A stretch of 64,000 bases of DNA from an uncultured delta proteobacterium (GCA_963758155.1 CAVWUP010000018.1:173026-237025), one strand, 5' to 3'; numbered from the stretch's first letter, positions 5,145-61,012 are shown. Translations and numbers: made by a program. The notes: generated by a model from the letters alone, not told the origin.

Positions 5145-6569
5145 CTACAACTTCTTTCGCAAGGCCTCTACCGCGCGCTCGAGACGCACGCCACGCGAAG
5201 CTTTCACCAAGATCCAGTCCCCTGGCTCAGACCAAGTCGACACCGCTTGTGCGGCGGCTTCTGGATCGTCGAAGGCCAGGGCGCGGCTGGCGGACAAGCC
5301 TGCGGCCATGGCGCCTTGGGCGATCTGCGCGCCCAGGGATCCCACCACCGCCAGGCCAGCCACGCCGATGGTGACCGCCTCTTGGCCGAGGGCCCGGTGC
5401 AAGTCCGCGGCCGCGTCGCCCAGTTCCAGCATGTCGCCCAGGATGGCAAAAGCGCGACCGAAGCGGCCCGCCGATCCCACCAGCGTGCGCAAGGCAGCGG
5501 TCATGGACGTCGGATTGGCGTTGTAGCAATCGTCGAGTACCATGCGCCCACCCAGGCAGAACACATGAGACCGGTGCGCTGGCAAGGTCGCGTGTTGCAG
5601 GGCCGCGGCTCCCGGCAAAAGGGGAACCCCGAGCGCGTTCGACACGGCCAGAGCCGCCGCCGCGTTGCGCGCATTGTGCTCACCCGCCAGGGGCAGGCGC
5701 AGCACCACCGGTTCGCACCCGACCGACAAACGAATGCGCGAACCCGCCGCGCCGTCGGGAATGAACTCCATGATCCTCACAAAGGCACGCGCGGAGGCGA
5801 CGCCGGCAAAGCCAAAGCGCCGCTTGTGCGCCTCGGGTATCGCGGCGACCTCAGGCTCCAGGCGAGGCTCGTCGACGGGCAACACGGCAATTCCGTCGGG
5901 GCCAAGGCCGCCAAAGATTTCGCCCTTGGCGCGCGCCACGGCCTCGAGCGAGCCCAGCCGCCCCAGGTGCGCGCCCGCCACGTTGGTCACCACCGCGACA
6001 TGGGGCTGGGCGATGCCAGCCAGGTACGCGATCTCGCCGGGCGCGCGCATGGCCATCTCCAGCACCCAGAACTTCTCCTTGCCGGTGGCTTCCAGCACGG
6101 TGAGGGGCAGTCCCACGTCGGTGTTGAGGTTGCCCTGGGTGCGCAGCACCTGGCCCGCAGGCGAGAGCGCGGCTGCGATCAGTTCCTTGGTCGTGGTCTT
6201 GCCGTTGGAGCCAGTGACACCCACAACGCGGCCGCGGTACTGTTTGCGCACGGCTGCGGCCAAGTCCCCCATCGCCTTGCGCGGGTCAGCCACTGCGATA
6301 ACTGCGATCGCGCTGCAGCCGGTCGGCCGGCCGCGATGCGCAGCCACCACCACCGCCGCTGCCCCGGCCTGGGCCGCGGCTGCGCAGAAGTCGAAACCGT
6401 CGACTCGCTCACCGGGAAGCGCGAAGAAGAGCCGACCGGCCTTCACCTCGCGGCTGTCGCTGGCAGCGCCGGCGAATCGGAGCGTACCCAGCGCGGCTGG
6501 CGCGTTGAGAGCCGTTCCACCCATGGCCTTGCACGCAAACGCCAGGGTCCGCTTCGCTGGTCCTGTCAC
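5145..6569 (-). CDS. murF: MurF, UDP-MurNAc-tripeptide--D-alanyl-D-alanine ligase
   Basis: 474 aa Mur ligase with GVTGSNGKTTTKE P-loop. Position between murE and mraY. Confidence 0.85.
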   Translation of the reverse strand: MTGPAKRTLAFACKAMGGTALNAPAALGTLRFAGAASDSREVKAGRLFFALPGERVDGFDFCAAAAQAGAAAVVVAAHRGRPTGCSAIAVIAVADPRKAMGDLAAAVRKQYRGRVVGVTGSNGKTTTKELIAAALSPAGQVLRTQGNLNTDVGLPLTVLEATGKEKFWVLEMAMRAPGEIAYLAGIAQPHVAVVTNVAGAHLGRLGSLEAVARAKGEIFGGLGPDGIAVLPVDEPRLEPEVAAIPEAHKRRFGFAGVASARAFVRIMEFIPDGAAGSRIRLSVGCEPVVLRLPLAGEHNARNAAAALAVSNALGVPLLPGAAALQHATLPAHRSHVFCLGGRMVLDDCYNANPTSMTAALRTLVGSAGRFGRAFAILGDMLELGDAAADLHRALGQEAVTIGVAGLAVVGSLGAQIAQGAMAAGLSASRALAFDDPEAAAQAVSTWSEPGDWILVKASRGVRLERAVEALRKKL

Positions 6570-6588
6570 GCGACACCTCGGCCCCGGA

Positions 6589-6705
6589 TTTCACCACAGA
6601 GAGCACAGAGAGCACGGAGACGGATGGGAAGGCGAGAAGGGTTCGGACTCGGATCCGGAACCCTTTCCTTCCGGCCTCTGTGGCCTTTGTGCCCTCTGTG
6701 GTGAA
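6589..6705. repeat. REP/MITE-like inverted-repeat element, copy 1, in the murE-murF spacer
   Basis: TTCACCACAGAGAGCACAGAG ... CTCTGTGGCCTTTGTGCCCTCTGTGGTGAA terminal inverted repeats with an internal GGGTTCGGA...TCCGGAACCC sub-palindrome. Same family as the copies at 15538, 41189 and 45496. Confidence 0.8.
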
Positions 6706-6750
6706 GCTCCGGATCGCGTAGTTGGCCGTCGAATCCAGACAAGATCGCGG

Positions 6751-8292
6751 CTAGCACCTGTGACCTCCGGGAGCCGTGCGGCCTTGGCGGGTGGCGAAGG
6801 CGGCCGCGGCCACCTCGCGATCGTCGAAGTGAATCTTCTGTGTGCCGAGGATCTGGTAATCCTCGTGGCCCTTGCCCGCTATGAGCAGCGTGTCCCCTGG
6901 CCGCGCGAGCGCCACGGCCAGCTCGATGGCCGCGCGGCGGTCGGGCTCGACGTGGAAGCCCGACAAGCCCTGGCACAGCTCGGAGGCGGCCCGGCGGACG
7001 ATGCCCGTCTTCTCGACCCCGGCCACAATCATGTCAAGGATAGCGTGCGGGTCTTCGGTGCGCGGGTTGTCCGAAGTGATGACCACCACATCGGCGCGCT
7101 CGGCAGCGGCCTGGCCCATGCGCGGTCGCTTGCCCTTGTCGCGATCGCCGCCACACCCGAAGACCACCAACACGCGCCCCGTGCTGAGCGGCCGCAACAC
7201 GTCGAGGGCCCGTTCCAGTGCGTCGGGCGTGTGGGCGTAGTCGACCAGGCACAGCACGCCCGCTGCGTTCGTCACACGTTGCAAGCGGCCCGGAACGCCG
7301 CCCACCCTGCTGATGCCAGCGGAAATCGCGTTGCGATCAATGCCGTGGGCTAGCGCCATGCCGGCGGCCAGCAGGATGTTGGATAGGTTGAACTCGCCCA
7401 CCAGCGGTGACGTGATAGCCAGCGGTCCCGAGGGCGTCGCGAGTTGCAGGGAGGTTCCATCGGCCCCCAGCCGGCGATCGAGCACCGCGACGTCGGCACC
7501 GCGCGGCTGTCGCGTAAGGGTCAGCACCGGGCCGCGCACTTCGCGGCGCATGACGAGGCCGTCTTGGTCGTCGGCAAAAAGCACGGCCACGCCTTTGTCG
7601 GGGGACAACAACTCGCGGAAAAGAATCGCCTTGGCGGCCCGGTAGCGGTCCATTGTGGCGTGATAGTCGAGGTGGTCCTGGGTGATGTTGGACAGGCCCG
7701 CCACGCGAAAGCTGCAGCCATGCAGCCGCCCCTGATCCAGGGCGATGGACGAAGCCTCCAGCACCACGTCCGAGCAGCCCGCGACTTTCATCTGAGAGAA
7801 GAGCGAATGCAATTGCAGAGCGCCCGGCGTGGTGAGCGGCGCTTCCTGCATATGGCCGGCAAAACGGTAGCCCACGGTCCCGATGACACCAGGGCGGCGA
7901 CCAGCTGCGGCCAGAATGGCCTCGATCAAGTAGGTGGTCGTGGTTTTGCCGTTGGTGCCGGTCACGGCCGTGAGCGTGAGAGCCTGCGCCGCCTGGTACC
8001 GATTGGCGGCGACCAGCCCGAGCGCCAGTCGCGCACTGGGCACCAAGACCAGCGCGGCTGCGCCGTCCGGTGAAGCGTCGGCTTCCTCGGTGAGGATGGC
8101 CGCTGCTCCCTTGGCCTTGGCGTCGTCAATGAAACGCCGGCCATCGAGTTTGGTTCCGGGAATCGCAACGAAGAGATCTCCGGGCTGCACCAGGCGAGAG
8201 TCGTCACGCACCTCGTGGATCAGGACCTGCCCGTCGCCCGCGGCGATGCGGGCGTCTGATATTCCCTGCAATAGATGCGAAAGCCGCAGCAA
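6751..8292 (-). CDS. murE: MurE, UDP-MurNAc-L-Ala-D-Glu--2,6-diaminopimelate ligase
   Basis: 513 aa Mur ligase with TGTNGKTTTTYL P-loop. Located between ftsI and murF. Confidence 0.85.
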   Translation of the reverse strand: MLRLSHLLQGISDARIAAGDGQVLIHEVRDDSRLVQPGDLFVAIPGTKLDGRRFIDDAKAKGAAAILTEEADASPDGAAALVLVPSARLALGLVAANRYQAAQALTLTAVTGTNGKTTTTYLIEAILAAAGRRPGVIGTVGYRFAGHMQEAPLTTPGALQLHSLFSQMKVAGCSDVVLEASSIALDQGRLHGCSFRVAGLSNITQDHLDYHATMDRYRAAKAILFRELLSPDKGVAVLFADDQDGLVMRREVRGPVLTLTRQPRGADVAVLDRRLGADGTSLQLATPSGPLAITSPLVGEFNLSNILLAAGMALAHGIDRNAISAGISRVGGVPGRLQRVTNAAGVLCLVDYAHTPDALERALDVLRPLSTGRVLVVFGCGGDRDKGKRPRMGQAAAERADVVVITSDNPRTEDPHAILDMIVAGVEKTGIVRRAASELCQGLSGFHVEPDRRAAIELAVALARPGDTLLIAGKGHEDYQILGTQKIHFDDREVAAAAFATRQGRTAPGGHRC

Positions 8293-15537: not shown

Positions 15538-15605
15538 ATTTCACCACAGAGGGCACAGAGTTCACAGAGCCGGAAGGGAACGGGTTTCGGAGCTTGCATC
15601 CGGCG
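15538..15605. repeat. REP/MITE-like element copy 2 (left arm intact, right arm degenerate)
   Basis: TTCACCACAGAGGGCACAGAGTTCACAGAGCCGGAAGGGAACGGGTTTCGGA immediately after the leuA stop. It overlaps the 3' end of the convergent membrane-protein gene. Confidence 0.65.
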
Positions 15606-15996
15606 GCCCCTCTGCTCTTCGTCGCAAGGCGCGGGCTGCGGCCCACATCTGAATCGACGACAGAAACGCCGTCGTCGCAATCACGCCAATTGACACCGGC
15701 GTGCGAAATTCCCCTCGGCCGGACAACAGGAAGGCCCCGTGAATTGCGCCCGCGCTGAGTCCCGCAGCTGCAAGCAATATCGACATCCACAGGCCTGACC
15801 GGGCGCCGGTACGCAAGGCTCCGAAGCCCCACAGCACCGCGGCTGCCAGCGGAACGTGCAGCAGAACGAAGGCCCCAATGCCGCCGGGGAGCCCAAACAG
15901 ATCCCATTCGTGCCAGTAGGCCGAGTCGATCTCGTGCGCGATCAGAAACGCGGCGTTGGCGAAGTACAAACGGCAAAGAAGAGTGTCAGTGGGCAT
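15562..15996 (-). CDS. Small polytopic membrane protein, hypothetical
   Basis: 144 aa from MPTDTLLCRLYFANAAFLIAHEID with 3-4 predicted TM helices. The last ~11 codons and the stop are encoded inside REP copy 2. The ORF-track 216-aa version has an Arg-rich N-terminal extension that is unlikely to be real. Confidence 0.45.
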   Translation of the reverse strand: MPTDTLLCRLYFANAAFLIAHEIDSAYWHEWDLFGLPGGIGAFVLLHVPLAAAVLWGFGALRTGARSGLWMSILLAAAGLSAGAIHGAFLLSGRGEFRTPVSIGVIATTAFLSSIQMWAAARALRRRAEGPPDASSETRSLPAL

Positions 15997-16019
15997 AGCC
16001 GCCTCGACAGTCGCTTGCT

Positions 16020-16805
16020 CTACCCGTGCACGGCGCGGCCGAAATCGCGCATCCAGGTCATCTCGTCTTCGCTCAGCGGACCTTTCTCCAGGGCGGCCAG
16101 GTTCTCGCGGACCTGCGCCACGGTCTTGGGTGCTGACAGGACGACGTCGACGTGCGGGCTGGTAAGACAGAAGCGGTAGCAGTCGCCAGGCGTGGCCACC
16201 CTGCCGGTCCAACCCTTGGGCGCGCGTAGCAGCTTGCGCCAGGAGGTCGCGGTGTACGCGACGATCATGGGTTTGCGGCGCTCCACGTGCGGGAAGATGT
16301 CGCTCTCGGCGCCCGGGTGAGCGGCGTTGTAGCGGATCATGAACATGGAAAGCGGGCCTTCCTCGGCGAGCCGGCCCACCAGCTTGCGGTCGTGCGTGGA
16401 GATCCCGATGGCGCGAACCTTGCCCTCGTCGCGCAGCTTCACCATCTCGGCAAGCACGGATCTCGATAGCAGCGACATTCGGTTCACCCAGAAAACTTGC
16501 AGCACGTCGATGTAGTCGCCGCCGCTCGCGCGCAAAGCCTTTTCAGTGGCGCGGCGAACGGAGCCGGCGAAGTAGCCGAAAATGGGGCCAGTGGCCAAGA
16601 CGTACTTCTCGCGGCTGGGGGCGACGACGTCTTTGACGATGGTCTTGAGAAACTTCTTCGCCGGGCTCCAGAAAATGTAGTTGGCCCCGCGCTCAAGTCC
16701 CTCGCGCACGCCGGCCTCGTCCAGACCATAGGAGGCGGACAAGCCATAGCGATGGACGCGTTTGCCCAAAACGGGAACGGTGCGATAGAGGAAGTCGTCG
16801 CTCAT
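16020..16805 (-). CDS. Aldo/keto reductase family oxidoreductase
   Basis: 261 aa with the AKR fold pattern (RAIGISTHD, NAD(P)H-binding C-terminal region). Confidence 0.55.
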   Translation of the reverse strand: MSDDFLYRTVPVLGKRVHRYGLSASYGLDEAGVREGLERGANYIFWSPAKKFLKTIVKDVVAPSREKYVLATGPIFGYFAGSVRRATEKALRASGGDYIDVLQVFWVNRMSLLSRSVLAEMVKLRDEGKVRAIGISTHDRKLVGRLAEEGPLSMFMIRYNAAHPGAESDIFPHVERRKPMIVAYTATSWRKLLRAPKGWTGRVATPGDCYRFCLTSPHVDVVLSAPKTVAQVRENLAALEKGPLSEDEMTWMRDFGRAVHG

Positions 16806-19417: not shown

Positions 19418-19653
19418 CCCAGGCGTCGTTCGCGACGGTGCCGTCGTCCGACCGGCAGGTGTGATCCTGCCGTCAATATGGGTCACAAAAAGATCACGCC
19501 GATAGCGACATTCTTTGTCGCGCGGCGTGTGGCCGATTTTTTGTCGCGATTTTCCGCGGGAAGGGAGCAAAATGCGGTCCCGGCGAGCCGTTCCATGCTC
19601 ACGGCACTCAGACTCAATGGCATTTGATTGACCCTAAGGCGGAGAGGACATCG

Positions 19654-21429
19654 ATGAAGCGAACTGAATTCTCGGCAATGGTGCTTGTGGCTGGTGCGCT
19701 GACTCTGGGTTGCTCTGGTGCGGGTCCAGGCACCGGCGAGATCTTTGGCACAGGAGGGACAGGCGCTTCCTCACAACCTGCGGCCGGATCCGGCGGAATT
19801 CAGCAAGCCGCCGGGCATCCAGGCAACGGAGGCACTTCCAGCGTGGGAGGGACGAGCGCACTGGGTGGAACCGCGGGGCTACTAGCAGGCACGACTGAAG
19901 CAGGCGGCAGCATGGCCGGGCCGAGCGGCAGTGGCGCAGGCGGCGCAGCGGGCGGTGCCACCGGGGCGAGCGGCGGTGCAGGCGGTGCAGCGGGCGGTGT
20001 GACTGGGGCGAGCGGCGGCGCGACCCGGGCGAGTGGCGGCATCACAACTGCGGGTGGCACCGCGGGGCAGGGTGGCAGCACTGTGGGTGGCACGACTGGG
20101 CAAGGCGGCGGCAAGACGGGCCAGAGCGGCGGTGTGACCAGTGTGGGTGGCACGACTGGGTCGGCCGGCGGCACCACTGGGCAAAGCAGCGGCACCGCAG
20201 GTTCCGCTGGCGCTGGTGGAACCGTCAATTCCGGCGGCGCGACCAGCACGGGCGGCACCGGAGGCAAGACCACGACGACCAGTTCCGGCGGAACCAGCAG
20301 CTCCGGCGGAGTCGGGACCACGGGAGGATCCAGCGCCACGGGAGGCTCGGGTGGCAAGGGCGGATCCAGCGCGACGGGCGGCTCCACCGGAACCAGTAGC
20401 TGCGGCGCTGTCGCGGGCGTGGTCGGGACTCTCATCGACTCTGGCCCCGGCGCGACCAATCCCTCGCCCCCCGACCCGGCCGGCATCACCTTCAAGGACA
20501 CCGACGGCGATCTGGTCAACGCCCACGGCGGCGGCATCATCCGGGTGTGCAACACCTTCTATTTGCACGGCGAATACTTCCTGAGCACCACGACCGACAA
20601 CGATTTCAACGGCTTTTCGATGTACTCGTCCCCGGATCTGGTGACATGGAAGAAGGAGGGCAACAAGGGGATCATCCTGCCCCAGCAATCGAGCGGCCAG
20701 CTCGGGCCGAACCGCAAAGGTGAGCGGCCGCACATCATCAAGTGTCCCGCCACAGGCGAATTCGTTCTTTACGCTCATTCCGCCGACGTCACCTATCAAG
20801 TCGACAAGGAAGTCGTGTACGCGACCTCGCCTACCGTCAACGCTGTATACAGTTTCAAAGGATCTCTGCTGAGCTCAAGTGGAGCCATCGCCGCCCACAG
20901 CGACATGAGTGCCTATGCCGACGATACCGGTGCCTATGTCGTTACGGAAAGTGGCTGGGTCTTTACCCTGTCTAGCGACTGCCACAGTTGGGTGTCCAGC
21001 AAACAGTACTCAGTCCTGAACGGAACCACGGGCGGCATCGAAGCGCCCACGGTGTTCAAGGATACCAGCGGCACCTACTACTTCATCGGATCCGACAAGA
21101 CAGGGTGGCGCGCCAACGACGATTTCTATTCCACGGCGAAATCGATGAACGGGCCGTGGACCTACCAGGGATACATTGCTCCCGAGGGCAAGAAAGCCTG
21201 GATGACCCAGAGTACCTGGGTGTTGCCCATCGTGGGAAGCAAGGGAACCGTGTTCATGTACTGGGGCGATCACTGGTATGGCAACCAAGACACCACCAAT
21301 CCCGGCGTCCACAACTATCTGGCGACCTATGTATTCCAGCCGCTAGTTCTGGGCAGTGGCACGACATTGCTGCCGACCTACCAGGCCAGCTGGAAGATCG
21401 ACATCGGCGCTGGCACCTGGTCGCAGTAA
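19654..21429 (+). CDS. Lipoprotein with long Gly/Thr/Ser-rich linker and C-terminal GH43-like five-bladed beta-propeller glycoside hydrolase domain
   Basis: Signal peptide with LTLGC lipobox, ~220 aa of GGT/GGS/GGA low complexity, then a domain with NAHGGGIIRVCNTFYLHGE and GIEAPTVFKDTSGTYYFIGS blocks resembling GH43. ATG at 19654 has a GGAGAGG Shine-Dalgarno. Confidence 0.5.
   Translation: MKRTEFSAMVLVAGALTLGCSGAGPGTGEIFGTGGTGASSQPAAGSGGIQQAAGHPGNGGTSSVGGTSALGGTAGLLAGTTEAGGSMAGPSGSGAGGAAGGATGASGGAGGAAGGVTGASGGATRASGGITTAGGTAGQGGSTVGGTTGQGGGKTGQSGGVTSVGGTTGSAGGTTGQSSGTAGSAGAGGTVNSGGATSTGGTGGKTTTTSSGGTSSSGGVGTTGGSSATGGSGGKGGSSATGGSTGTSSCGAVAGVVGTLIDSGPGATNPSPPDPAGITFKDTDGDLVNAHGGGIIRVCNTFYLHGEYFLSTTTDNDFNGFSMYSSPDLVTWKKEGNKGIILPQQSSGQLGPNRKGERPHIIKCPATGEFVLYAHSADVTYQVDKEVVYATSPTVNAVYSFKGSLLSSSGAIAAHSDMSAYADDTGAYVVTESGWVFTLSSDCHSWVSSKQYSVLNGTTGGIEAPTVFKDTSGTYYFIGSDKTGWRANDDFYSTAKSMNGPWTYQGYIAPEGKKAWMTQSTWVLPIVGSKGTVFMYWGDHWYGNQDTTNPGVHNYLATYVFQPLVLGSGTTLLPTYQASWKIDIGAGTWSQ
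19735..20400. repeat. Low-complexity (GGN/ACN) coding repeat region with internal near-duplications
   Basis: It encodes the G/T/S/A linker. Stretches such as GGAGGAAGG(V/A)TGASGG recur. Confidence 0.5.
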
Positions 21430-21482: not shown

Positions 21483-23954
21483 TCAGCGTCGCCGGCGCAT
21501 GACCAGCAGCCCGAAGGCGGCTACGAGGAACAAGGTGAAGAGCCCGGGGGCGCTGTCGTGAAGCGGAGTGACGGAACAGAACCCGCCACCCATGGCCTTC
21601 AAACTGGGCCCGGCGGCGTCCGGCCCCGGCACCGCTGCGTCGGCAATGTGCGTTCCAGCGGCGTCCGGCTGCGGTGAGACCGCCTGATCGACGGCCACCT
21701 GTGCGTCGCCTGAAGAAGACGGGAAAGGCGGCTCCACGACCACAACCACTTGTGCGTCTTGCGCGCCTGCCTCGAGTTCAATTCCGTCGCTGCTCGCGTC
21801 CTCGGCCCCGTCTGCGCCGTTGGCCGCAGCATCCAGCTTGACCGGCGGCCCAGCGTCGATCGCCACCACCGCGACATCCAGACGCGCAGCCGCGTCCAAC
21901 AGAACCACGGGGCCAGGTCCATCCGCGGCACCGGTGTCTTCACCCGCGTCCAATAGGGCCACGCCATCGAGGCCTTCACCAGCGTCGAGTCCGACCAGCG
22001 TCCCTGAATCATCGAAAACTGGCGGCACATCAAGGACTGCCACGTCGGGATTCTCTGCCTCGGCGTCGACACCGCCATCCAGGTCCGCGGCATGCAGCAC
22101 GTGCCAAGTCCAAGAGGCGGGCGTGGTACTGAGGTTTCCATTGAGATCCTTGCCCTGCACCAGCAGGGTGTGCGATCCGTCGGACAGATCAGTGGTGGTG
22201 TAGCTGGCTGGGCAGGCCGCGTAGCCAGCGCTGTCCAGGTTGCATTGGAAAGTGACCCCGCTCTGCGCGCTGGTGAAAGCGAAAGTCCCTTCGCCCGTGC
22301 TCGTGGGATCAGTGGGTTTGGCTGACATCGTCACCACCGGGTTGGTGCAATAGAGCATGGAGGAGGCCGCCGCGTTTTCGATGAGGCCGCGCTGTCCTGC
22401 CGTCGCGCCATTGCAGGGGAACTCGGTCACACCAAGCGAGTTCGTCGTACCCCCGTCGCCACCTTCAGCCGTGACTGTGGTCGGCGTGCCTCCGGAAAGG
22501 GCAATGTATCCGCCACCGCCACCGCCACCAGGACCTTCGGCCTCGTTTACAGTGATTTGTTGGTTGCCGCCCGCTCCGCCATTCGCCCTTACCACGACGC
22601 CGGTCCCAAGCACACCCGCGTGCACCACCACTGTCCCGCCACCGCCGCCGCCGCCAGGGGCGTCGCCCGATGCGGAGGCTCCCGAGTTGGCAGGCCCCCC
22701 GGGTGCACCATTGGCGAGGATGCTGCCGGTGCCCGTGACCGTCCCAGCGATCACGAAGACCAGGCCACCGCCCTTGCCGCCCGGGCCGGTGAAGCCATTG
22801 TTTCCGTCGCCGGCGCCACCGCCGCCGCCCAGGAAGAGTCGCCCAGCCGGGCTGCCGATGAGCGGATGCCCACCCAGACCACCGCGTTCGCGCCGGTAGT
22901 TTCCGCCCCAAGCGGCGTCGCCCGGCCCAACCGTCGTTGCGACCTGGTTGGCGGATGAATAGGTGTATCCGCCGCGGCCACCGCCTGGCCCGCCACTCAA
23001 GGCATAGCCGGGGTCGAGCAACCAAGCCGCTGCGCCGGTGACACTGCTCGACATCACACCCTGGCCGGTCCAGTTCGCTCCGCCGCCATCGCTGCCCACG
23101 CCGCTGGCCGCCGCGTTGGCGCCGCCTCCGCCACCACCGTTGTGCCAGTTGCCGCCGCCGCCGCCATTGGCAGGCGCGCCCCGGCCATAGCGGTAAGCGA
23201 AGGTGGTGTCTTGCGGCCAGCCTGCAATGCTCTCACCCTTCTCGGCGCCGTCGTTCGGGTCGGCCGAGCGATAGGTGGTATGGATGTCCGGCGGCGGGGT
23301 CACACTCACCGCTCCAGTGTGGGTGGCACCCCCGCGGAAACCGGTGCCGCTGGCATCAATCGAGCCATTGAGATCCAGAGTCGTCGCTGCCTGCAGCGCG
23401 ACCACGCCGCCCTTTGTGCCATCCCATGCAGGCGCGATGATGGAAGCCCCGCCGTTGATGGTGAGCGTGGAGTACTGCGGGACGCGAATGACCTGGCTCT
23501 TGCCCGCCACGGTGTAGGCCTTCTGCAGATGGCAGCCCAACGTGATGGTTGTTCCTGAGACGCTCGCCACACCAGCCAACTCGTAGTTGCCGGCGCTTCC
23601 CAGAGCGGTGACGCTTCCGTAGCTGGCATCGTTGGGATCGGTGGGCTCGTTGATGGTGGCGCCGGCCATCTGGATGATGAGCACCAGATCTCCGGCCGCC
23701 AAACTCGGCAGGCCCCCGGTGGCCACGGTCACGCTGGGGTCGTTGACGGCAGCATCGGCCGCCAGGGCCGCGTACTCGTTCACGACCGTGTTGGGATCGG
23801 CCACCGTGACAGCGCCGTCCTTGCCCACCAGGGCCTGGTTGACGACCACAGCCTGGGTGACTTTGTCCGACGACGACTTGCAGCCCGCCACCACCAGAAG
23901 CAAGACCTGTCCCACGGCAACGACTCGCAGCAAGGCCCGGTTTCCGCGCTTCAT
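21483..23954 (-). CDS. Glycine-rich secreted lipoprotein with MYXO-CTERM sorting signal
   Basis: ~823 aa from MKRGNRALLRVVAVGQVLLLVVAGC (lipobox), with long GGGG(N/A) tracts. The C-terminus GGGFCSVTPLHDSAPGLFTLFLVAAFGLLVMRRRR fits MYXO-CTERM (Cys + TM + RRRR). The ATG overlaps the stop of the upstream OmpA-family gene (ATGA). Confidence 0.6.
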   Translation of the reverse strand: MKRGNRALLRVVAVGQVLLLVVAGCKSSSDKVTQAVVVNQALVGKDGAVTVADPNTVVNEYAALAADAAVNDPSVTVATGGLPSLAAGDLVLIIQMAGATINEPTDPNDASYGSVTALGSAGNYELAGVASVSGTTITLGCHLQKAYTVAGKSQVIRVPQYSTLTINGGASIIAPAWDGTKGGVVALQAATTLDLNGSIDASGTGFRGGATHTGAVSVTPPPDIHTTYRSADPNDGAEKGESIAGWPQDTTFAYRYGRGAPANGGGGGNWHNGGGGGGANAAASGVGSDGGGANWTGQGVMSSSVTGAAAWLLDPGYALSGGPGGGRGGYTYSSANQVATTVGPGDAAWGGNYRRERGGLGGHPLIGSPAGRLFLGGGGGAGDGNNGFTGPGGKGGGLVFVIAGTVTGTGSILANGAPGGPANSGASASGDAPGGGGGGGTVVVHAGVLGTGVVVRANGGAGGNQQITVNEAEGPGGGGGGGYIALSGGTPTTVTAEGGDGGTTNSLGVTEFPCNGATAGQRGLIENAAASSMLYCTNPVVTMSAKPTDPTSTGEGTFAFTSAQSGVTFQCNLDSAGYAACPASYTTTDLSDGSHTLLVQGKDLNGNLSTTPASWTWHVLHAADLDGGVDAEAENPDVAVLDVPPVFDDSGTLVGLDAGEGLDGVALLDAGEDTGAADGPGPVVLLDAAARLDVAVVAIDAGPPVKLDAAANGADGAEDASSDGIELEAGAQDAQVVVVVEPPFPSSSGDAQVAVDQAVSPQPDAAGTHIADAAVPGPDAAGPSLKAMGGGFCSVTPLHDSAPGLFTLFLVAAFGLLVMRRRR

Positions 23955-25624
23955 GGACTCACCTCGCTCTTGTCTCGGTTGCTCTTCTCGATGATCTTGA
24001 ACTGCACGCGCCGGTTCTTCTGCCGGCCCTCGGGTGTGGCGTTGTCCGCCATGGGCTGGTCGGGTCCATACCCGTGCGCGCTGAGGCGGCCGCTGTCGAT
24101 CTGGCCGAAGGTCACCAGCCACTTCCTCACGGAGTCGGCCCGTTTCTGACTGAGCTTGCGGTTGTACTTCTTGCTACCGCGACTGTCGGTGTGGCCTTGG
24201 ACCTCGAGCTTGACAATTTCAGGATGCTCGACCAGCACGCCGGCTACCTGGCGCAGGAGATCGTCGCTGACCGGCAAGATCACGGCACTGCCTGTCTTGA
24301 ACTGCACCTGCTCCAGGATGACGATCTCACCCTGCGTGACCCGTACGGCTCTTGGGCAGCCGTTCTTTTGCGGATCGCTGTCGGCCGGGCCCTTCTCGTT
24401 GGGGCAGGCGTCCACGTCGTCGCGGATGCCGTCGCCGTCGGTGTCGGGCGGGCAGCCGTTTTCATTGGGATCGCTGTTGGCCAAGCCCTTGACGTCGGGA
24501 CACGCATCGTCCTGGTCTGCAATGCCGTCGCCATCGCGGTCAGGCGGAGGCGGCGGGCAGCCGTTCTTGCCCGGATCGTCGCTGGGTACGCCCGGCTCAT
24601 CCGGGCAGGCGTCGCTCTTGTCCGGGATGCCGTCGTGGTCGCGATCCGCGGGCTTGCGCGGTTTGGGCGGTGGCGGCGGCGGAGGCGGTGGCGGTGGCGG
24701 CGGTGGCGCCGGCGCGGGCGCATAGGCCACGGAGAGCAGTCCCCGCAGGGCGGGTGTGCCCATCCCGTGGGTGAACCCCGGACCCGCCCCTGCGCCCAAC
24801 ACGAACCCTGAAAGATTCACTCTCAGTCCCAGGATGCCTTCCATGTTGGTTGTGGCGCGGGTGAAGCGGTCGGCGCCCAGCATGACCGCCGTTCCGTAGA
24901 CCTCGGGTCCGATCTGCAGCATCTTGTCGGCCAGCAGAAGCCCGACCGCGGCGCCGAAGATCAGTTGCGTTCCCATGGTGGTGCCGCCGAAGCTGACTTC
25001 GTTGCGGATATCGACTCCCGCAGTGGCACCGTAGGCCAGCATGGGGATCTCACCCGAGAACCCCAGCACCGGAGTGCCATGCACCTTGCCGTCGCCGCCA
25101 AACTTGTCCTTGTTTCCGGTGGGCACGAACACATGACCGCCCAGGGTGAGGCTGGCCGGCGAGCGCGCTTCGCCCACCAGCCGGACGCGTGCGCTCAGCC
25201 GCAGATCGCCTGCCGCGAATCCCGACGGCGACTGCTCCGTAAATCCTGCCACGGTCGGGTTCTGGCCGCTCAAGAGCAGGGTCAGGGGCATGTCAGCCAC
25301 CACGAGGAGGCGGTCCCACAGGCTCAACCCGGCCGCGACATGCACAAGTAGCTGGTTCTTGACGATATCGCCCACGCGCACGTCGCCCGGCTCCTGGTAG
25401 AGGGACAGCGGGCGATAGGCGTAGTCGCCCAGAAGCATCAGCCGAGGCAGAAGATGTCCGCCGGGATCGCCGCCCTCGACGCCGAAGAATCGATCGCCGG
25501 GCAGCGACGGTTGAAACCGGTCGAGCGAGAAGCCACCCGTCTGCTGCGCCAGGGTTGCAGGCGCCCATCCGAGCACCACGGCCAAGATCAGACTTGAGCA
25601 CGATCGAGCGATGACTTTGTTCAT
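23951..25624 (-). CDS. OmpA-family outer membrane protein with thrombospondin type 3 (Ca-binding) repeats
   Basis: 557 aa with signal peptide, N-terminal barrel-like region, a P17 proline run, repeated DxDxDGxxDxxDxCP TSP3 motifs, and a C-terminal OmpA domain (FKTGSAVIL...GHTDSRGS...NRRV). Confidence 0.75.
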   Translation of the reverse strand: MNKVIARSCSSLILAVVLGWAPATLAQQTGGFSLDRFQPSLPGDRFFGVEGGDPGGHLLPRLMLLGDYAYRPLSLYQEPGDVRVGDIVKNQLLVHVAAGLSLWDRLLVVADMPLTLLLSGQNPTVAGFTEQSPSGFAAGDLRLSARVRLVGEARSPASLTLGGHVFVPTGNKDKFGGDGKVHGTPVLGFSGEIPMLAYGATAGVDIRNEVSFGGTTMGTQLIFGAAVGLLLADKMLQIGPEVYGTAVMLGADRFTRATTNMEGILGLRVNLSGFVLGAGAGPGFTHGMGTPALRGLLSVAYAPAPAPPPPPPPPPPPPPPKPRKPADRDHDGIPDKSDACPDEPGVPSDDPGKNGCPPPPPDRDGDGIADQDDACPDVKGLANSDPNENGCPPDTDGDGIRDDVDACPNEKGPADSDPQKNGCPRAVRVTQGEIVILEQVQFKTGSAVILPVSDDLLRQVAGVLVEHPEIVKLEVQGHTDSRGSKKYNRKLSQKRADSVRKWLVTFGQIDSGRLSAHGYGPDQPMADNATPEGRQKNRRVQFKIIEKSNRDKSEVSP

Positions 25625-29022: not shown

Positions 29023-29373
29023 ATGGCGAAGAGGCTGTACGTAGGCAATCTGGCCTACAGCGTGACCGAAGCGGATCTGCGCGAGGTCTTTACTGAGGCG
29101 GGCAATGTGGCCGACGTGAAGGTTGTGCTGGACCGCGAGAGCGGGCGACCGCGCGGCTTTGCGTTCGTCGAGATGTCGACTGACGACGAAGCGGCCAAGG
29201 CCATGCAGACACTGAATGGTCGCGAGATCCAAGGGCGCGCAATCAGCGTCAGCGAGGCACGTGAACGTACTGGTGGCGGTGGCGGCGGTGGCGGGGGCGG
29301 TCGCGGCCATGGTCGCGGTGGTTTTGGCGGCGGCGGTGGTGGCGGTCGCGAGCGTTCGGGCGGTCGCTGGTAG
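29023..29373 (+). CDS. Glycine-rich RRM-type RNA-binding protein (paralog 1)
   Basis: RNP1/RNP2 motifs (LYVGNL, RGFAFVEM) and a poly-Gly/Arg C-terminal tail. Shine-Dalgarno GAGGAG. Confidence 0.8.
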   Translation: MAKRLYVGNLAYSVTEADLREVFTEAGNVADVKVVLDRESGRPRGFAFVEMSTDDEAAKAMQTLNGREIQGRAISVSEARERTGGGGGGGGGGRGHGRGGFGGGGGGGRERSGGRW

Positions 29374-30079: not shown

Positions 30080-30397
30080 ATGGGTAAGAGACTGTACGTT
30101 GGGAATTTGTCTTTCTCGATCACTGAGGCTGATCTTCGTGAGGCCTTCAAGGCCGAAGGTCACGATGTGTCCGAGGTGAAGTTGGTCACGGATCGGGAAA
30201 CCGGCAGGCCGCGTGGCTTTGCCTTTGTGGAAATGGCTACGGACGAAGGGGCGGCCCACGCCATTGGCAGCCTCAACGGCCGCGACCTGCAGGGTCGCAC
30301 GATCACTGTCAGCGAGGCGCGCGAGCGCACGGGTGGCGGCGGTGGTGGCGGTGGTGGTGGACGCGGCGGGCGTGGCGGCGGCGGCGGTCGCTGGTAA
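30080..30397 (+). CDS. Glycine-rich RRM-type RNA-binding protein (paralog 2)
   Basis: The RRM region is about 75% identical to paralog 1 and has the same Gly-rich tail. Confidence 0.8.
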   Translation: MGKRLYVGNLSFSITEADLREAFKAEGHDVSEVKLVTDRETGRPRGFAFVEMATDEGAAHAIGSLNGRDLQGRTITVSEARERTGGGGGGGGGGRGGRGGGGGRW

Positions 30398-30427
30398 GCG
30401 GGTCGCACACAAACACCAGATCGAGAA

Positions 30428-41188: not shown

Positions 41189-41299
41189 TTCACCACAGAG
41201 AGCACAGAGCCCACGGAGCCGGACCGGAAAGGGAAGGGTTGGGTTCTGTCCGGTCCGAACCCTTCTTCCTTTCCGATCTCTGTGCTCTCTGTGGTGAAA
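41189..41299. repeat. REP/MITE-like element copy 3
   Basis: TTCACCACAGAGAGCACAGAGCCCACGGAGCC ... GATCTCTGTGCTCTCTGTGGTGAA. The arms are near-perfect reverse complements. Confidence 0.8.
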
Positions 41300-41361
41300 C
41301 ATCTCGCCAATTCGGATCAGGGTTCCCATCTGCAATGACTTCTGCGCTATTCTGTTGATCC

Positions 41362-44288: not shown

Positions 44289-45491
<1,203 letters not shown>

Positions 45492-45495
45492 CTGT

Positions 45496-45619
45496 TTCAC
45501 CACAGAGAGCACAGAGAACACAGAGGTCGGAAAGGAAGGAGGGGGGGTCGGCCTGCGAAGAATCCAACCCTTCCCTCTCCGCTCCGGCTCTGTGACCTCT
45601 GTGTCCTCTGTGGTGAAAT
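45496..45619. repeat. REP/MITE-like element copy 4 (between convergent genes)
   Basis: TTCACCACAGAGAGCACAGAGAACACAGAGGTCGG ... CCGGCTCTGTGACCTCTGTGTCCTCTGTGGTGAA. Confidence 0.8.
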
Positions 45620-45626
45620 AGGCTAG

Positions 45627-46454
45627 CTACGTCCCCGGCTTTTGCGGCAGATAGCCGGGCGGCGGCGCGAGCAGGAAGGCGTCAGCGGGAAAGGTCGGGT
45701 TGAGGATACGGTCGCGGACCTTGATCTCCACGCCGTCGTCGAAATCGTGCCCCGGTTCGGCGAAACGGATGAGTGCAGGGAACGACTGCCCGTCGCTGCG
45801 CTGCAGATCCTCGTAGGACACACGCCAGCGGGCACGCGCGAACGGCGACTGACCCGCGACCGCGACCACCTCCCAGGCAGCCACCGCAGGCGCCGGCCGA
45901 CGCAGGGTGATCCACAACTGCACGCCATCGGGTGTCAGCAGGTGCAACACGTCTGCCCCTCGGTCCCACCCGACGTCCAGTGCCTGGCTTCCCTCGGGGA
46001 AAAACACGTCGCCCAGCAGGATGGCGGCCACGGCCTGGGCTGGCAGGGGAATACGGATCAATGAAGCCACATCACCCGGGGTGGCCTGGCCCTGGCGAAA
46101 GATCTTTTTCTGGTGGTCGACGAAGACGAAGGCACCGTCGTGGACCGCCAGCGCAGCCACCGTGCCCTGCAACGACACCTCGGCCTCGAAGCGCAGATTG
46201 CCTCCGCGCTCGACCAACATCTGCACGGTTCCGCGCACGCGCTCGCCGCCCAACCAACTGGTGGTGCGCGTTTCCAGATTCACACTGCGCACAGCCGTCT
46301 GGCGCGCGCGCAGGGCGGCCAGCAGTTCATCGGCGGTAGGAACGGGATACTTTCGTTGCGCGGGGGTCGTCGACGCACACGAAATGATCAGCAAGCCGAC
46401 CACGAAAAGCAGCGAACGGCCGAGAAATCCGCAGCCTGCCCGAAGATTGCCCAC
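45627..46454 (-). CDS. Lipoprotein, LolA/LolB-fold (DUF4292-like) hypothetical
   Basis: Probable GTG start giving MGNLRAGCGFLGRSLLFVVGLLIISC (lipobox IISC). The ORF-track start at 46685 adds a 77-aa Arg-rich extension that is unlikely to be real. Lies 3 nt downstream of the TPR gene. Confidence 0.4.
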   Translation of the reverse strand: MGNLRAGCGFLGRSLLFVVGLLIISCASTTPAQRKYPVPTADELLAALRARQTAVRSVNLETRTTSWLGGERVRGTVQMLVERGGNLRFEAEVSLQGTVAALAVHDGAFVFVDHQKKIFRQGQATPGDVASLIRIPLPAQAVAAILLGDVFFPEGSQALDVGWDRGADVLHLLTPDGVQLWITLRRPAPAVAAWEVVAVAGQSPFARARWRVSYEDLQRSDGQSFPALIRFAEPGHDFDDGVEIKVRDRILNPTFPADAFLLAPPPGYLPQKPGT

Positions 46455-56566: not shown

Positions 56567-57297
56567 TTTGCGGGTGCAGCGGGTAGGGGTGGAGGAGGCG
56601 GGACTGGCTGCGCTGGTGCGGAGGAAGGTGGCGGTAGCGGGGCTGGTGCCGGCGGCGGTGCCGGAGCCGGTGTCGGCGCGGGCGGCGGCGGTGCAGGCGG
56701 CGCTGGTGCCGGCGCGGGCGGCGGTGATGACGATAGTGGCGGCGCGGTGGGCCCGCCGTCGGAGAGAGCCCTTGCGACCAGCTTGTCGAGCGAGTCGTCG
56801 ACCACGTCGCTCTTGAGGACTTCCTCGGCGCGACTGATCAGCGCGCCCTTCTCGGCATCGAAGAGCAAGATGACGATCTTGACCGGCGCCTTCTTCTTGG
56901 CCTTGCCCACGCGTTCCATCTCGGCCCACAGCAGACGATCGGCACCCAGCAACTTGGCCACCTTCACGTAGCATTCGTCATTGGCCTGGACACACTCGGC
57001 CTGCCCCTGCGCCGTTTCCATGCTGATCGCGGCGACCGTTCGTTCGTCCACACCCAGCACCTCGGCCCTGACCAGCTTCTCGTTGAGCGCGGTGGCAGCG
57101 TTGGGCAACAAGAACCTTTCCGCCGGCAACAGGACCAGCTTCACCTTCTTGGGTGGCGGTGGCGGCGGCGGTGGCGGCGGCGGCGGAACGTAGCGAACCG
57201 GCGCCTCGCGCGGGCTTCGACGGGGAACGCAGCCGACGAGCGTGGTCAGAACCAGTCCGGTCACCAGGAAGATCTTGACTGTTGAGTTCACGGTCAT
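56563..57297 (-). CDS. Lipoprotein with poly-proline segments
   Basis: From MTVNSTVKIFLVTGLVLTTLVGC (lipobox), with a P12 run and a C-terminal PAPAPP-rich tail. Shine-Dalgarno GGAG. Confidence 0.5.
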   Translation of the reverse strand: MTVNSTVKIFLVTGLVLTTLVGCVPRRSPREAPVRYVPPPPPPPPPPPPKKVKLVLLPAERFLLPNAATALNEKLVRAEVLGVDERTVAAISMETAQGQAECVQANDECYVKVAKLLGADRLLWAEMERVGKAKKKAPVKIVILLFDAEKGALISRAEEVLKSDVVDDSLDKLVARALSDGGPTAPPLSSSPPPAPAPAPPAPPPPAPTPAPAPPPAPAPLPPPSSAPAQPVPPPPPLPAAPAK

Positions 57298-58583: not shown

Positions 58584-59303
58584 ATGCCACCGAGCGATAA
58601 CAAGGAGGTTCTGAGCCGGTTCATTGCATCGACTAGAAGAAGACTCGAACGAGCAGAGAAGGTTATTGCTTCGCCCGAGCACGCAGACGGCAGGGCCTTG
58701 GCCATGGAGATCCATTTGATTTGGGGCGAGGCCGCGATGCTGGAACTGCCCCGAATCGCACAGCTGGCCCGCGAGGCAGAGTCGGCGGCTCGACGTCTGG
58801 GTACGCAAGACACGGCCGAAGCGCGGATTGCCTGCGCCGCAGCCGTTCGCTCCATGCGCGAAGGGCTGGACGACGAGGAGGCACGCTGGAACGCGCAGCA
58901 CGGATCGGAGTACGCCAACGAAGGGCGTCCTTGCCGCGTGCTCGTGGTGGACGACAGCCCCTTTGCTGCGCGGGCTTTGTCGCACGTCTTTGAACGCAAC
59001 GGCTTCGAGGTTCGCACCGCCACCACGATCGGCGAAGTGCTTGACCTGTGCGCGACGTTCGGACCGAGCATCCTGGTGACCGACGTGCAGATGCCCGGCG
59101 TGGATGTGTCCGAACTGTGCGACCGTTTTCGCGAGGCCACACAAGGCCAGCGCACGGGGATCGTTCTGGTTTCCGCCCGTTCGGACGTCGAGCTGCAGGA
59201 CTGCCTGCACGCCACGGGCGCCGACGACTTCATTCCCAAGTGCGCCGGCACGAACGCCGTGGTGAGCCGCGTGCGGGCACTGTCCAAGGATATTTCGGGC
59301 TAG
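58584..59303 (+). CDS. Hpt-REC response regulator (orphan)
   Basis: N-terminal helical Hpt-like region (EIHLIWGEAAMLELP, His-containing). A C-terminal receiver domain (VLVVDDSP...LVTDVQMPGVDV...K). Confidence 0.5.
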   Translation: MPPSDNKEVLSRFIASTRRRLERAEKVIASPEHADGRALAMEIHLIWGEAAMLELPRIAQLAREAESAARRLGTQDTAEARIACAAAVRSMREGLDDEEARWNAQHGSEYANEGRPCRVLVVDDSPFAARALSHVFERNGFEVRTATTIGEVLDLCATFGPSILVTDVQMPGVDVSELCDRFREATQGQRTGIVLVSARSDVELQDCLHATGADDFIPKCAGTNAVVSRVRALSKDISG

Positions 59304-59395
59304 AAGTTGGGCGGGGCCGGAGGACGGCGGGCACGCCTGGACCCTACGCTCGCAGCGTGCCCACAGACCGCTTTGCTGGTACTCTGACAGGTGTG

Positions 59396-61012
59396 ATGCG
59401 CGAGTGCCGATATCTGACAATAGGTGTGGCTTTGTCATTCGCCGCTCTTGCGTGCGCCCGGACGCCGATGGAGCGACAACGGGCGGGCACGACGAACGGA
59501 GGCACGGGTGGCGGCGACACGACTGTCGCCAGCGGCGGTGCTACTAGCGCCCCGATAGGCACAACCAGCTATTCCGGTGGCGTGACCAGCTATCCCGGTG
59601 GCGTGACCGGCCCCACGGGAGGGGCGACCACCAATGCCGGTGAAACTGCGCCACCAGGAGGAACAACAGCGAGCGGCGGGACTACCAGTGCCGGTGGGAC
59701 TGCGCCGCCAGGGGGAACAACAGCGAGCGGCGGAGCCACCAGTGCTGGTGGAACTGCGACAGCAGGCGGAACAATAGCGAGCGGCGGAAGCACCAATGCC
59801 GGTGGAACTGCGACAGCGGGGAGAACAACAGCGAGCGGCGGAAGCACCAATGCCGGTGGAACTGCGACAGCGGGGAGAACAACAGCGAGCGACGGAACCA
59901 CAAATGCGGGTGGGACTGCAACAGCAGGGAGAACCACAGCGAGCGGCGGAACCACCAATGCGGGTGGCACTGCGACAGCAGGGAGAACCACAGCGAGCGG
60001 CGGAACCGCCAGTGCCGGTGGAACTGCGACGGCAGGGAGAACCACAGCGAGCGGCGGAACCACCAGTGCCGGTGGAATTGCGACAGCGGGAGGAACAACA
60101 GCGATCGGCGGCACTTCGCTGTACGGAGGAACGCCACCAAGTTGTAGTGGCCTGGCCGCGACCTGTGGGCCGTTGAACGAGACCTGCTGCACCAGCTTTC
60201 TGGTCCCTGGCGGAACATTCTATCGGAGTTACGACGGCGTGGACAACACGGATATGAGCTACCCGGCGACGGTGAGTGACTTCTACCTCGACAAGTACGA
60301 GATCACGGTGGGCCGGTTCCGGCAGTTCGTCAACGCGGGAATGGGCACGCAGGCCAACCCGCCTGCCGCTGGCGCCGGTGCCAATCCGTTGATCCCGGGC
60401 TCGGGCTGGGACTCGGCGTGGAACGAGTGGCTCGCGACGGACGCGGCCAGCCTGACAGCCAACATAAAGTGCCCTAGCGTCAATGGTCAGAATCACACCT
60501 GGACCGACGCGGCAGGGAGTAACGAGAGTAAGGCAATGAATTGCATCGAATGGCACACGGCATTCGCGTTCTGCGCGTGGGACGGCGGACGGCTGCCGAC
60601 CGAGGCTGAATGGAACTACGCGGCCTCCGGGGGAAGCGAGCAGCGGTACTATCCGTGGTCGAGCCCGCCAACCTCGACAACAATCGACGACAGTTACGCT
60701 GTGTACTGCGGCGGCACATGCAGCATACAGAATGTGGGCTCAAAGTCTCCGAAAGGCGACGGGAAGTGGGGCCAGGCCGACCTTGGCGGGAACCTATCTG
60801 AATGGACACTGGACTACCTAGACCCATACCAAACTCCATGTGATAACTGCGCCGATCTGAACAACGTCGTCATGTGGGATATCCCCTCCAGCCGGGAGAT
60901 CCGTGGCGGCGACTTCCCCGACGGCGCCAAGGGGCTCCAGTCGGCCTTTCGCGACTTCGGCTCCCCGGGGCCTGACACCATCGGGGCACGTTGTGCCAGA
61001 ACCAGTTTGTAG
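59396..61012 (+). CDS. Lipoprotein with Gly/Thr/Ala tandem repeats and C-terminal FGE-sulfatase (SUMF1) domain
   Basis: Signal MRECRYLTIGVALSFAALAC, about 8.7 copies of an 18-aa repeat (TATAGRTTASGGTTNAGG), then an FGE domain (RLPTEAEWNYAA, GNLSEWT, RGG). ATG at 59396 has an AGGTG Shine-Dalgarno. Confidence 0.65.
   Translation: MRECRYLTIGVALSFAALACARTPMERQRAGTTNGGTGGGDTTVASGGATSAPIGTTSYSGGVTSYPGGVTGPTGGATTNAGETAPPGGTTASGGTTSAGGTAPPGGTTASGGATSAGGTATAGGTIASGGSTNAGGTATAGRTTASGGSTNAGGTATAGRTTASDGTTNAGGTATAGRTTASGGTTNAGGTATAGRTTASGGTASAGGTATAGRTTASGGTTSAGGIATAGGTTAIGGTSLYGGTPPSCSGLAATCGPLNETCCTSFLVPGGTFYRSYDGVDNTDMSYPATVSDFYLDKYEITVGRFRQFVNAGMGTQANPPAAGAGANPLIPGSGWDSAWNEWLATDAASLTANIKCPSVNGQNHTWTDAAGSNESKAMNCIEWHTAFAFCAWDGGRLPTEAEWNYAASGGSEQRYYPWSSPPTSTTIDDSYAVYCGGTCSIQNVGSKSPKGDGKWGQADLGGNLSEWTLDYLDPYQTPCDNCADLNNVVMWDIPSSREIRGGDFPDGAKGLQSAFRDFGSPGPDTIGARCARTSL
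59640..60115. repeat. 54-bp tandem coding repeat, ~8.7 copies
   Basis: Near-identical 54-nt units encoding TA(T/P)AG(R/G)TTASGG(T/S)T(N/S)AGG. Confidence 0.8.

Follow-up and report, generated by a model that had tools for sequence, protein, structure and literature searches.

Three complete inverted-repeat elements and one half element lie in the 64,000-nt stretch of DNA analysed here (the window), which has a G+C content of 65% and, by the names of its homologues, comes from an uncultured member of the Polyangia (Myxococcota). Copy 1, a full element of 116 nt (6590-6705; arms 6590-6619 and 6676-6705), sits in the dcw operon, in the spacer that separates murE from murF, where its neighbours are Mur ligase genes, the downstream one named murF by its homologues. 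Copy 2 is the half element: it starts at 15540, extends to about 15605 and comprises a three-unit left arm (15540-15569) and the left half of the interior, without a right arm. It falls where two convergent genes meet, leuA (stop codon 15531-15533) and a DUF6713 ORF (stop codon 15562-15564), and fills the 28-nt gap between their stops. The DUF6713 ORF (15562-16212, minus strand) has its TGA stop within the third unit of the half element, so its last ~14 codons are derived from the element; its Pfam match stops at residue 193 of 216. Copy 3 (full, 110 nt, 41189-41298) is flanked by a DUF4139-like gene that stops at 41171 and a Ser/Thr kinase gene that starts at 41362, the two being + strand genes; copy 4 (full, 122 nt, 45496-45617) fills the gap between a ClpX-like AAA gene (stop codon 45489-45491) and a convergent 352-aa ORF (stop codon 45627-45629). 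The initial annotation had listed four repeats at these places, which holds for the three full copies; the one that it put at 15538-15605 is a half element that does not fold.

The copies stand far above chance in sequence. The 12-mer TTCACCACAGAG occurs at seven sites in the window (6590+, 6694-, 15540+, 41189+, 41287-, 45496+ and 45606-) against 0.21 expected from shuffles, and for the two-unit motif CACAGAGNNCACRGAG there are 13 occurrences where 0.06 would be expected. The ends had been described as terminal inverted repeats of 30-35 nt. They are inverted arms, but not plain ones: each consists of TTCAC followed by three tandem 9-nt units of the form RRCACAGAG, in which the leading dinucleotide is variable and mostly purine. 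Folding, which had been suggested as a check, gave stable structures for every full copy. Copies 1, 3 and 4 each form one long hairpin on either strand (z -8 to -9), with energies of -78.5 kcal/mol on the + strand and -73.4 on the - strand for copy 1 (z -8.3), -70.5 and -71.8 kcal/mol on the two strands of copy 3, and -84.1 and -78.2 kcal/mol on those of copy 4, a range of -70.5 to -84.1. The half element, copy 2, has no stable fold (z +0.2 to +0.9). An inner module, GGAAGGGTT, is confined within the window to CACAGAG elements; as an element of its own it was rejected because all its window occurrences lie inside them. A coding reading, which had been named as a possible objection, was rejected too: the copies are intergenic, and only the tail of the DUF6713 ORF and a new tail of murE enter them. 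Pfam has no family for the spurious peptides derived from the elements. The elements do produce spurious ORFs, with peptides such as FTTEDTE..., HHRGHR... and ...LCVLCGE.

Orientation was judged by the asymmetric interior rather than by the purine-rich core. A palindrome with a purine-rich 5' half reads purine-rich on both strands, so the core gives no orientation information; the strand bias proposed in the initial annotation is an automatic property of palindromes, and orientation flips among close relatives. Nor do the copies all point the same way, as had been supposed: copies 3 and 4 are mutually inverted, copy 3 aligning with the reverse complement of copy 4 at a score of 144 and with copy 4 as it stands at 96. 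With regard to the replication arm, GC skew across the window shows no usable trend. The description of the copies as lying at gene 3' ends or between convergent genes is loose: it suits copies 2 and 4, which are in convergent gaps, but copy 1 is inside an operon and copy 3 between co-directional genes. Among 212 elements of the family, the split between tandem (65%), convergent (17%) and divergent (17%) gaps is that of the background, with no preference for 3' ends and no enrichment of convergent gaps.

Other repeats occur in the window, several of them within ORFs. At least eight tandem 54-nt units (59573-60165; 70-88% identical) lie inside a + strand ORF (59048-61012) and encode an 18-residue protein repeat rich in Gly, Thr and Ala; similar units are found at 19870-20382 in the ORF 19624-21429. 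Three 96-nt direct repeats (24354-24650; 68-73% identical) lie inside a minus-strand ORF (23951-25624) and are followed by GGC-rich runs at 24644-24726, with similar GGC/GGT runs at 29262-29353, 30307-30407, 56569-56750 and 57152-57186. Directly to the right of copy 3, at ~41316-41330, the remnant-like cagggttccc resembles a small palindrome, GGGAACCCTT(N)CAGGGTTCCCATATC, that is repeated in intergenic spacers of relatives (loci from other genomes and from viral contigs carry L numbers here; L441 3' of the AAA gene, and L191 900-960).

Gain, inversion and loss at orthologous sites

Insertion polymorphism of the MITE type is borne out by presence and absence at four orthologous sites: murE/murF, the AAA-gene junction, the copy-3 site and gmd/fcl. 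At the first of these, three groups of relatives whose MurF is 85-93% identical (L414, L418 and L422) have a murE stop codon that overlaps the murF start codon (ATGA or GTGA), with no spacer, where the window has a spacer of 181 nt. Comparison with them delimits an insertion of 188 nt (6580-6767, minus strand) made up of 10 nt, the hairpin, a further 57 nt (6706-6762) and one copy of a 5-nt duplication. The duplicated sequence is ACCTC (GAGGT in the sense of the genes), at 6575-6579 on the murF side and 6763-6767 on the murE side; its copies stand 10 and 57 nt off the hairpin and do not abut the inverted repeats. From the 57 extra nt of the insertion murE has acquired a different C-terminus (...GGHRC in place of ...GGAA) and a new TAG stop at 6751-6753. 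The signals of murF are unharmed: the murF-side repeat preserves a Shine-Dalgarno-like GAGGT 5 nt upstream of its GTG start (6567-6569).

The junction downstream of the AAA gene (copy 4) was compared across ~17 relatives with 85-96% identical protein, and the state of the site differs among them. The site is empty, with the two stop codons abutting (TGACTA or TAACTA), in L191/L192/L436, L195/L197 and L440. It is filled in the window, L425 and L431 with the interior in one orientation (A), and in L426, L432 and L433/L179 with the interior in the other (B); in L179 the left arm has decayed. Three deletion derivatives are present: L178 retains a 19-nt footprint (TAGCTGCGGTGAAAAGAAC), L439 has TCACCACAGAG fused to GTGAAAAGAGCT, and L428 keeps a single unit. 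In L178 and L439 the deletion endpoints are short repeats at the foot of the hairpin. In L186/L189 and L441 an unrelated hairpin has been inserted at the same point. A hairpin family of the GTGAGCG/CGCTCAC type occurs at the AAA-gene junction of other Polyangia (L186/L189 ~6195-6560; L180 5210-5340), and 3' of the AAA gene in L430 the loop of the element holds a (CCGAA)5 microsatellite that is absent from the other relatives.

At this junction the AAA stop codon is TAG at every filled site and TAA or TGA at empty ones. In the window the left flank, TAGCTGT (45489-45495, + strand), begins with this TAG, and the right flank, ATAGGCTAGCTA (45618-45629, + strand), closes with CTA, the convergent gene's stop codon, and belongs to a palindromic extension of the copy-4 hairpin. 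Self-complementarity is perfect in the L425 flanks, TAGTTAGCTGTTTCT...AGAAACAGCTAACTA, so that the palindrome spans both stop codons; the left flank there, TAGTTA, is what the ancestral target TAACTA gives as its reverse complement. A duplication of TAGCT at copy 4 is ambiguous because TAGCT is itself palindromic.

Resident copies also change in place. In the closest pair, L431 and L432 (third-codon identity 0.86), the interiors are mutually inverted, with an identity of 0.91 as reverse complement and 0.76 in the forward direction; the outer arm spacers (AG, AA) have not moved, and the flip therefore arises by recombination within the arms. In indel-free pairs at the junction, the element is 0.85-0.91 identical compared with 0.69-0.86 at third codon positions, and going by these identities the resident copies would be under at most weak constraint.

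The copy-3 site is empty in the syntenic loci L195 and L180, and an element 87% identical to copy 3 is found at a non-homologous context in L052, another Myxococcales MAG. In the Bacteroidaceae, an element separates gmd from fcl in Bacteroides ovatus and B. finegoldii alike; its flanks are identical in the two species, but the two copies are mutually inverted. In Phocaeicola massiliensis gmd and fcl overlap (TAATG) and there is no element. The inversion together with the empty site indicates that the insert-and-flip behaviour of the element recurs in an unrelated phylum.

Fixed-length target-site duplication was not found in the flanks of 73 full elements, where direct repeats are at chance (3.26 vs 3.11 +/- 0.10). 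Inverted complementarity of the same flanks is above chance (4.10 vs 3.52 +/- 0.11). The extra flanks inserted along with the elements vary (2 + 6 nt, 57 + 10 nt, 6 + 15 nt), so the inserted unit lacks defined transposon ends.

Distribution and anatomy of the family

A scan of species-representative genomes with TTCACCACAGAGNNCACAGAG found the arm at 119 loci at least, in more than 15 phyla (groups were taken from record titles). They include Acidobacteriota, Planctomycetota, Chloroflexota, Myxococcota and other 'delta' lineages, and Thermodesulfobacteriota; Gamma-, Beta-, Alpha- and Zetaproteobacteria, Nitrospira, Gemmatimonadota and Verrucomicrobia; and Lentisphaerae, Chlamydiae, Bacteroidota, Cloacimonadota, Clostridia and others. 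Perfect copies are present in annotated isolates (Bacteroides finegoldii, B. ovatus, Pseudoalteromonas shioyasakiensis, Gemmatirosa kalamazoonensis and Shewanella metallivivens), whereas 5,426 complete E. coli genomes all lack the element. Viral contigs in IMG/VR carry the arm pattern at 58 loci, the triple heptamer at 120 or more (25 for a shuffled-heptamer control) and the sister unit CGCAGAG at 83; some arm-bearing contigs encode portal, terminase and head genes. The motif is thus far from limited to its four places in the window. The initial annotation was right to see a dispersed non-coding hairpin family of the REP/MITE type, but the family does not belong to one genome: it is a cross-phylum, phage-borne family with a 9-nt iterated arm, not a private genome-wide REP.

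Elements range from 52 to 264 nt in length (median 110). Conservation starts sharply at TTCAC and spans three units, the third of which is ~65-75% conserved; CACAGAG accounts for 166 of 200 heptamers. Past the arm, the interior has no family-wide conservation and is lineage-specific: GGAAAGGGAAGGGTT, from the interior of the window copies, is found again in other Myxococcales. The heptamer positions pair with each other and are 64-100% conserved. In the spacers, Watson-Crick pairing is seen in 40-57% of elements, compared with 27-34% when partner arms are shuffled. What is conserved is the sequence of the arm, not merely its pairing.

In genome loci 80% of arms are accompanied by an inverted partner no more than 300 nt away, and in viral loci 36% are; solo arms and tandem arrays also occur. 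Sister families have the units CGCAGAG, CGCAAAG and CACCGAG, and arms are sometimes nested within outer hairpins of other 9-nt units, e.g. CGCAAAG or CGCGGAG. In L141 (3560-4030 and 6320-6776) and L136, an outer hairpin of CGCAAAG units surrounds an inner CACAGAG hairpin; these composites, situated between portal genes and genes of the terminase region of phages, form three tandem repeats with a period of 149-153 nt. In five loci (L010, L017, L031, L098 and L106) the interior contains another widespread hairpin, GTCAYYCCCGCGMAAGCGGGRATCCAG ... CTGGATTCCSGC, which suggests nested insertion into hairpin loops.

Phage contigs show further arrangements. L344 carries nine solo sister-family arms, (CTCTGCG NN)x3 GGTTAA, at gene junctions and on a single strand; one is broken by a small GC hairpin, and another has a CTCTGTG-type arm next to it in tandem. 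In sister-family arms (L344, L099, L109) the base of the stem, TTAACCGCAGAG...CTCTGCGGTTAA, resembles helix 45 of 16S rRNA (GTAACCGTAGG-GGAA-CCTGCGGTTGG), a likeness that may be coincidence. In seven viral loci (L241, L266, L291, L301, L246, L283 and L289) solo CACAGAG arms start at the upstream stop codon with the cap TGACC or TAACC, and tandem heptamers (CTTAAAA, GTCAATT, ATCGAAA) follow before the next ATG. In L166 (7420-8100) a left and a right arm enclose one DUF5662 gene, just past the gene for the terminase large subunit, an arrangement that resembles a cassette or a long-range stem around a single mRNA. DUF5662 was considered as a candidate enzyme and rejected: it has no PHROG or PDB relative and is a single case.

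Comparison with known repeat families

Several routes to a partner gene or a described relative were followed. In an all-against-all comparison of 3,833 ORFs, no neighbouring protein was enriched, the largest family being present at 7 of 119 loci. At five candidate loci, where distant arms might have enclosed an autonomous element, the genes are ordinary ones of phages or hosts (terminase, SPFH, PepSY). Among 198 loci (1.6 Mb), tblastn with approximate RAYT/IS200 queries gave one IS200-like match, which is not beside an element, and no RAYT gene lies within the window. Rfam, which the initial annotation had pointed to, holds no family that matches the window or six element-rich loci: there are no window hits at the gathering threshold, and in E-value mode the six loci matched only sub-threshold models of eukaryotic miRNA precursors, generic long hairpins. 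Literature searches by exact sequence strings and keywords found no description, only primer coincidences and general REP/MITE papers.

Integron attC sites have R''/R' core sites (RYYYAAC ... GTTRRRY) and lie in a gene-cassette array beside intI. An attC assignment was rejected here, the ends being TTCACC...GGTGAA and the copies being dispersed among housekeeping genes (mur, leuA). Of the features of MITEs, terminal inverted repeats, small size and the lack of an ORF are present. The element is close to the Correia/NEMIS (Neisseria), ERIC/IRU (Enterobacteria) and RPE (Rickettsia) families, which are likewise ~100-150 bp long with terminal inverted repeats, show insertion polymorphism, are co-transcribed with their neighbours and extend or replace the ends of ORFs, as here at murE and DUF6713. 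In MITEs of the Correia/ERIC/RPE type, insertion makes a defined duplication of the target site (TA for Correia), and the range of hosts is narrow. The present family has no consistent duplication, varying co-inserted flanks, an iterated inverted repeat and a very wide range of hosts.

REP/REPIN-RAYT systems are similar in that they are non-coding, lie near gene ends, occur as singletons, clusters and inverted doublets that form long hairpins, and have copies that decay. A REP unit is an imperfect palindrome of 20-40 nt with a GTAG or CGTC head (Di Nocera et al., PMC3733652). The arm described here is not self-complementary and has no such head: in place of the palindromic unit of REPs (PMC3733652) there are three direct 9-nt repeats behind a TTCAC head, an array that is not a palindrome. 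REPs also belong to a species or genus, whereas the arm is in more than 15 phyla, and no RAYT association was found among the 198 loci with the approximate queries.

For short repeats that cross phyla, the nearest conceptual precedent is the TAACTGA heptamer direct repeats common to Beggiatoaceae, Cyanobacteria and Bacteroidetes, which have no known transfer mechanism or binding factor (MacGregor 2015, PMC4679880). They too are short, tandem, conserved heptamers at gene junctions in distant phyla; unlike the present arms, they are contiguous 7-nt repeats just upstream of start codons, without hairpins and of another sequence (PMC4679880). Yeast and sponge mitochondria offer a further likeness in their GC clusters and repetitive hairpin-forming elements, small mobile hairpins that invade intergenic spacers and have no known transposase (PMC4478555, PMC2800124). 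As described there, those elements are organellar, unrelated in sequence and without an iterated arm.

A proposed selfish insertion element and its rivals

It is established that the family exists and has a very wide distribution, that tight gene junctions gain copies, and that resident copies flip, decay and get deleted. On the best reading its working class is MITE/REPIN-like: it is not a member of the REP-RAYT group, and it departs from canonical MITEs in target-site duplication. We give an even chance to the fuller account, in which this is a small, non-coding, palindromic insertion element, selfish and mobilised in trans by a putative factor. The 30-bp arm is the conserved module; in bacterial chromosomes it usually comes in two inverted copies that enclose a free, lineage-specific interior. 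New copies arise de novo in very tight junctions, where stop and start codons overlap or convergent stops abut, and a resident copy then changes in place as arm-arm recombination flips the interior, heptamers decay and deletions leave short footprints. Since copies decay while the arm stays constant across phyla, the arm is probably kept by a propagation filter: it would be recognised in trans by a putative enzyme or process, with host selection at each locus less likely. Phages, which carry arms, are the likely vehicle between hosts. Where a copy is transcribed it would give the same very stable hairpin from either strand and be tolerated within operons; a stabilising or processing effect on the RNA may follow as a secondary matter, resident copies presumably being largely neutral passengers. 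Counting against this reading are the chance-level direct repeats and inverted complementarity of the flanks, the varying co-inserted nucleotides and the failure of the searched loci to show an autonomous element, an enriched neighbour or a RAYT/IS200 link. The element at the AAA junction has also persisted across a clade, and arms in phage contigs are mostly solo, which a pure hairpin-transposon model would not lead one to expect. With no regular target-site duplication and no partner gene, three rival explanations stay in play.

The first is that the arm is a three-iteron binding array for a conserved host or phage protein that acts on DNA or RNA (examples would be transcription, the coupling of translation where genes meet, and the packaging or protection of genomes), that it spread because it is useful, and that the hairpin is simply two inverted arrays. 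We consider this possible but doubtful. It is the explanation that best fits the solo, co-oriented arms that are common in phage contigs, such as the nine on one strand at the gene junctions of L344 and those that often begin at the upstream stop codon with tandem heptamers up to the next ATG. It also suits the contrast between the conserved heptamers and the spacers, fewer of which are paired, and it has a precedent in the TAACTGA repeats (PMC4679880). Solo arms in viral loci are strand-biased (69:32), a figure confounded by the 53 of 169 solo arms that lie within long ORFs and by the many that come from related phages. What a useful binding site explains poorly is the fate of chromosomal copies, which decay and are deleted without replacement, and the existence of relatives that do without a copy at murE/murF, at gmd/fcl or at the AAA junction. 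The element is also missing from E. coli.

A host-selected RNA hairpin, serving as a block to 3'-5' exonucleases, an RNase III site or a two-way terminator, is unlikely. The hairpins are very stable on both strands, and elements lie nearer the upstream stop than the next start (median 26 vs 58 nt; p ~0.02-0.04 with naive ORF calls). The AAA-junction copy is kept in many relatives at slightly more than third-codon identity, and the arms around the phage DUF5662 gene recall the RNase III stems that bracket genes. There is some likeness, too, to intrinsic (Rho-independent, including bidirectional) terminators, in which a GC-containing hairpin follows stop codons or lies between convergent genes and reads alike on both strands. 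A canonical terminator role, which the initial annotation had thought possible, is not supported, however: GGTGAA is followed by ACATCTCG, GCTCCGGA and ATAGGCTA, no T-run stands after any copy, none is found on the opposite strand of the copies, and copy 1 is inside the essential dcw operon. Compared with intrinsic terminators, the stems are ~50 bp rather than 5-15 bp, copies are found inside operons, and the sequence is conserved, not the structure alone. Copy 1 in the dcw operon and the Bacteroides copy between gmd and fcl make an efficient terminator unlikely. The transcribed strand is no stabler than its complement (32 vs 30 in a test of G-U against A-C strands), orientation flips freely, no Rfam family matches, and structure alone would not call for cross-phylum conservation of a 30-nt sequence.

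The last rival, enzyme-free growth of palindromes by template switching or fold-back synthesis with arm-to-arm gene conversion at replication forks, in which a solo arm seeds its own inverted copy, agrees with flanks that are inverted rather than direct repeats, with the perfect L425 palindrome through both stops, whose TAGTTA mirrors TAACTA, with the above-chance match between spacers of paired arms and with the L178 and L439 deletions that end at short repeats at the hairpin foot, but it gives no account of how the same arm reaches unrelated sites and phyla, leaves the 5-nt direct duplication at murE/murF unexplained, and is improbable.

To return to selfish insertion in trans, REP and MITE families are usually private to a species or genus, and where their spread is understood it needs a linked or identifiable transposase. 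Here a 30-nt end is near-invariant across Myxococcota, Bacteroides, Shewanella, Acidobacteriota, Planctomycetota, Chloroflexota and phages, which is unusual. Translationally coupled essential genes (murE/murF, gmd/fcl) are split without apparent harm, and interiors flip in place on short evolutionary time scales. For annotation, the elements mean spurious ORFs and altered gene ends. A mobilising or binding factor, if one exists, would be broadly distributed, and because the element is present in cultivable, tractable hosts (Bacteroides ovatus, B. finegoldii, Pseudoalteromonas and Shewanella) these ideas are directly testable. Tentatively, the arm could be the recognition site of a broad, possibly phage-borne machinery that copies modules into junctions and builds palindromes, or else a universal cis-signal at stops and starts. 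If the machinery reading is true, the family would represent a new cross-phylum class of selfish element, one that spreads with neither a conventional target-site duplication nor a linked transposase.
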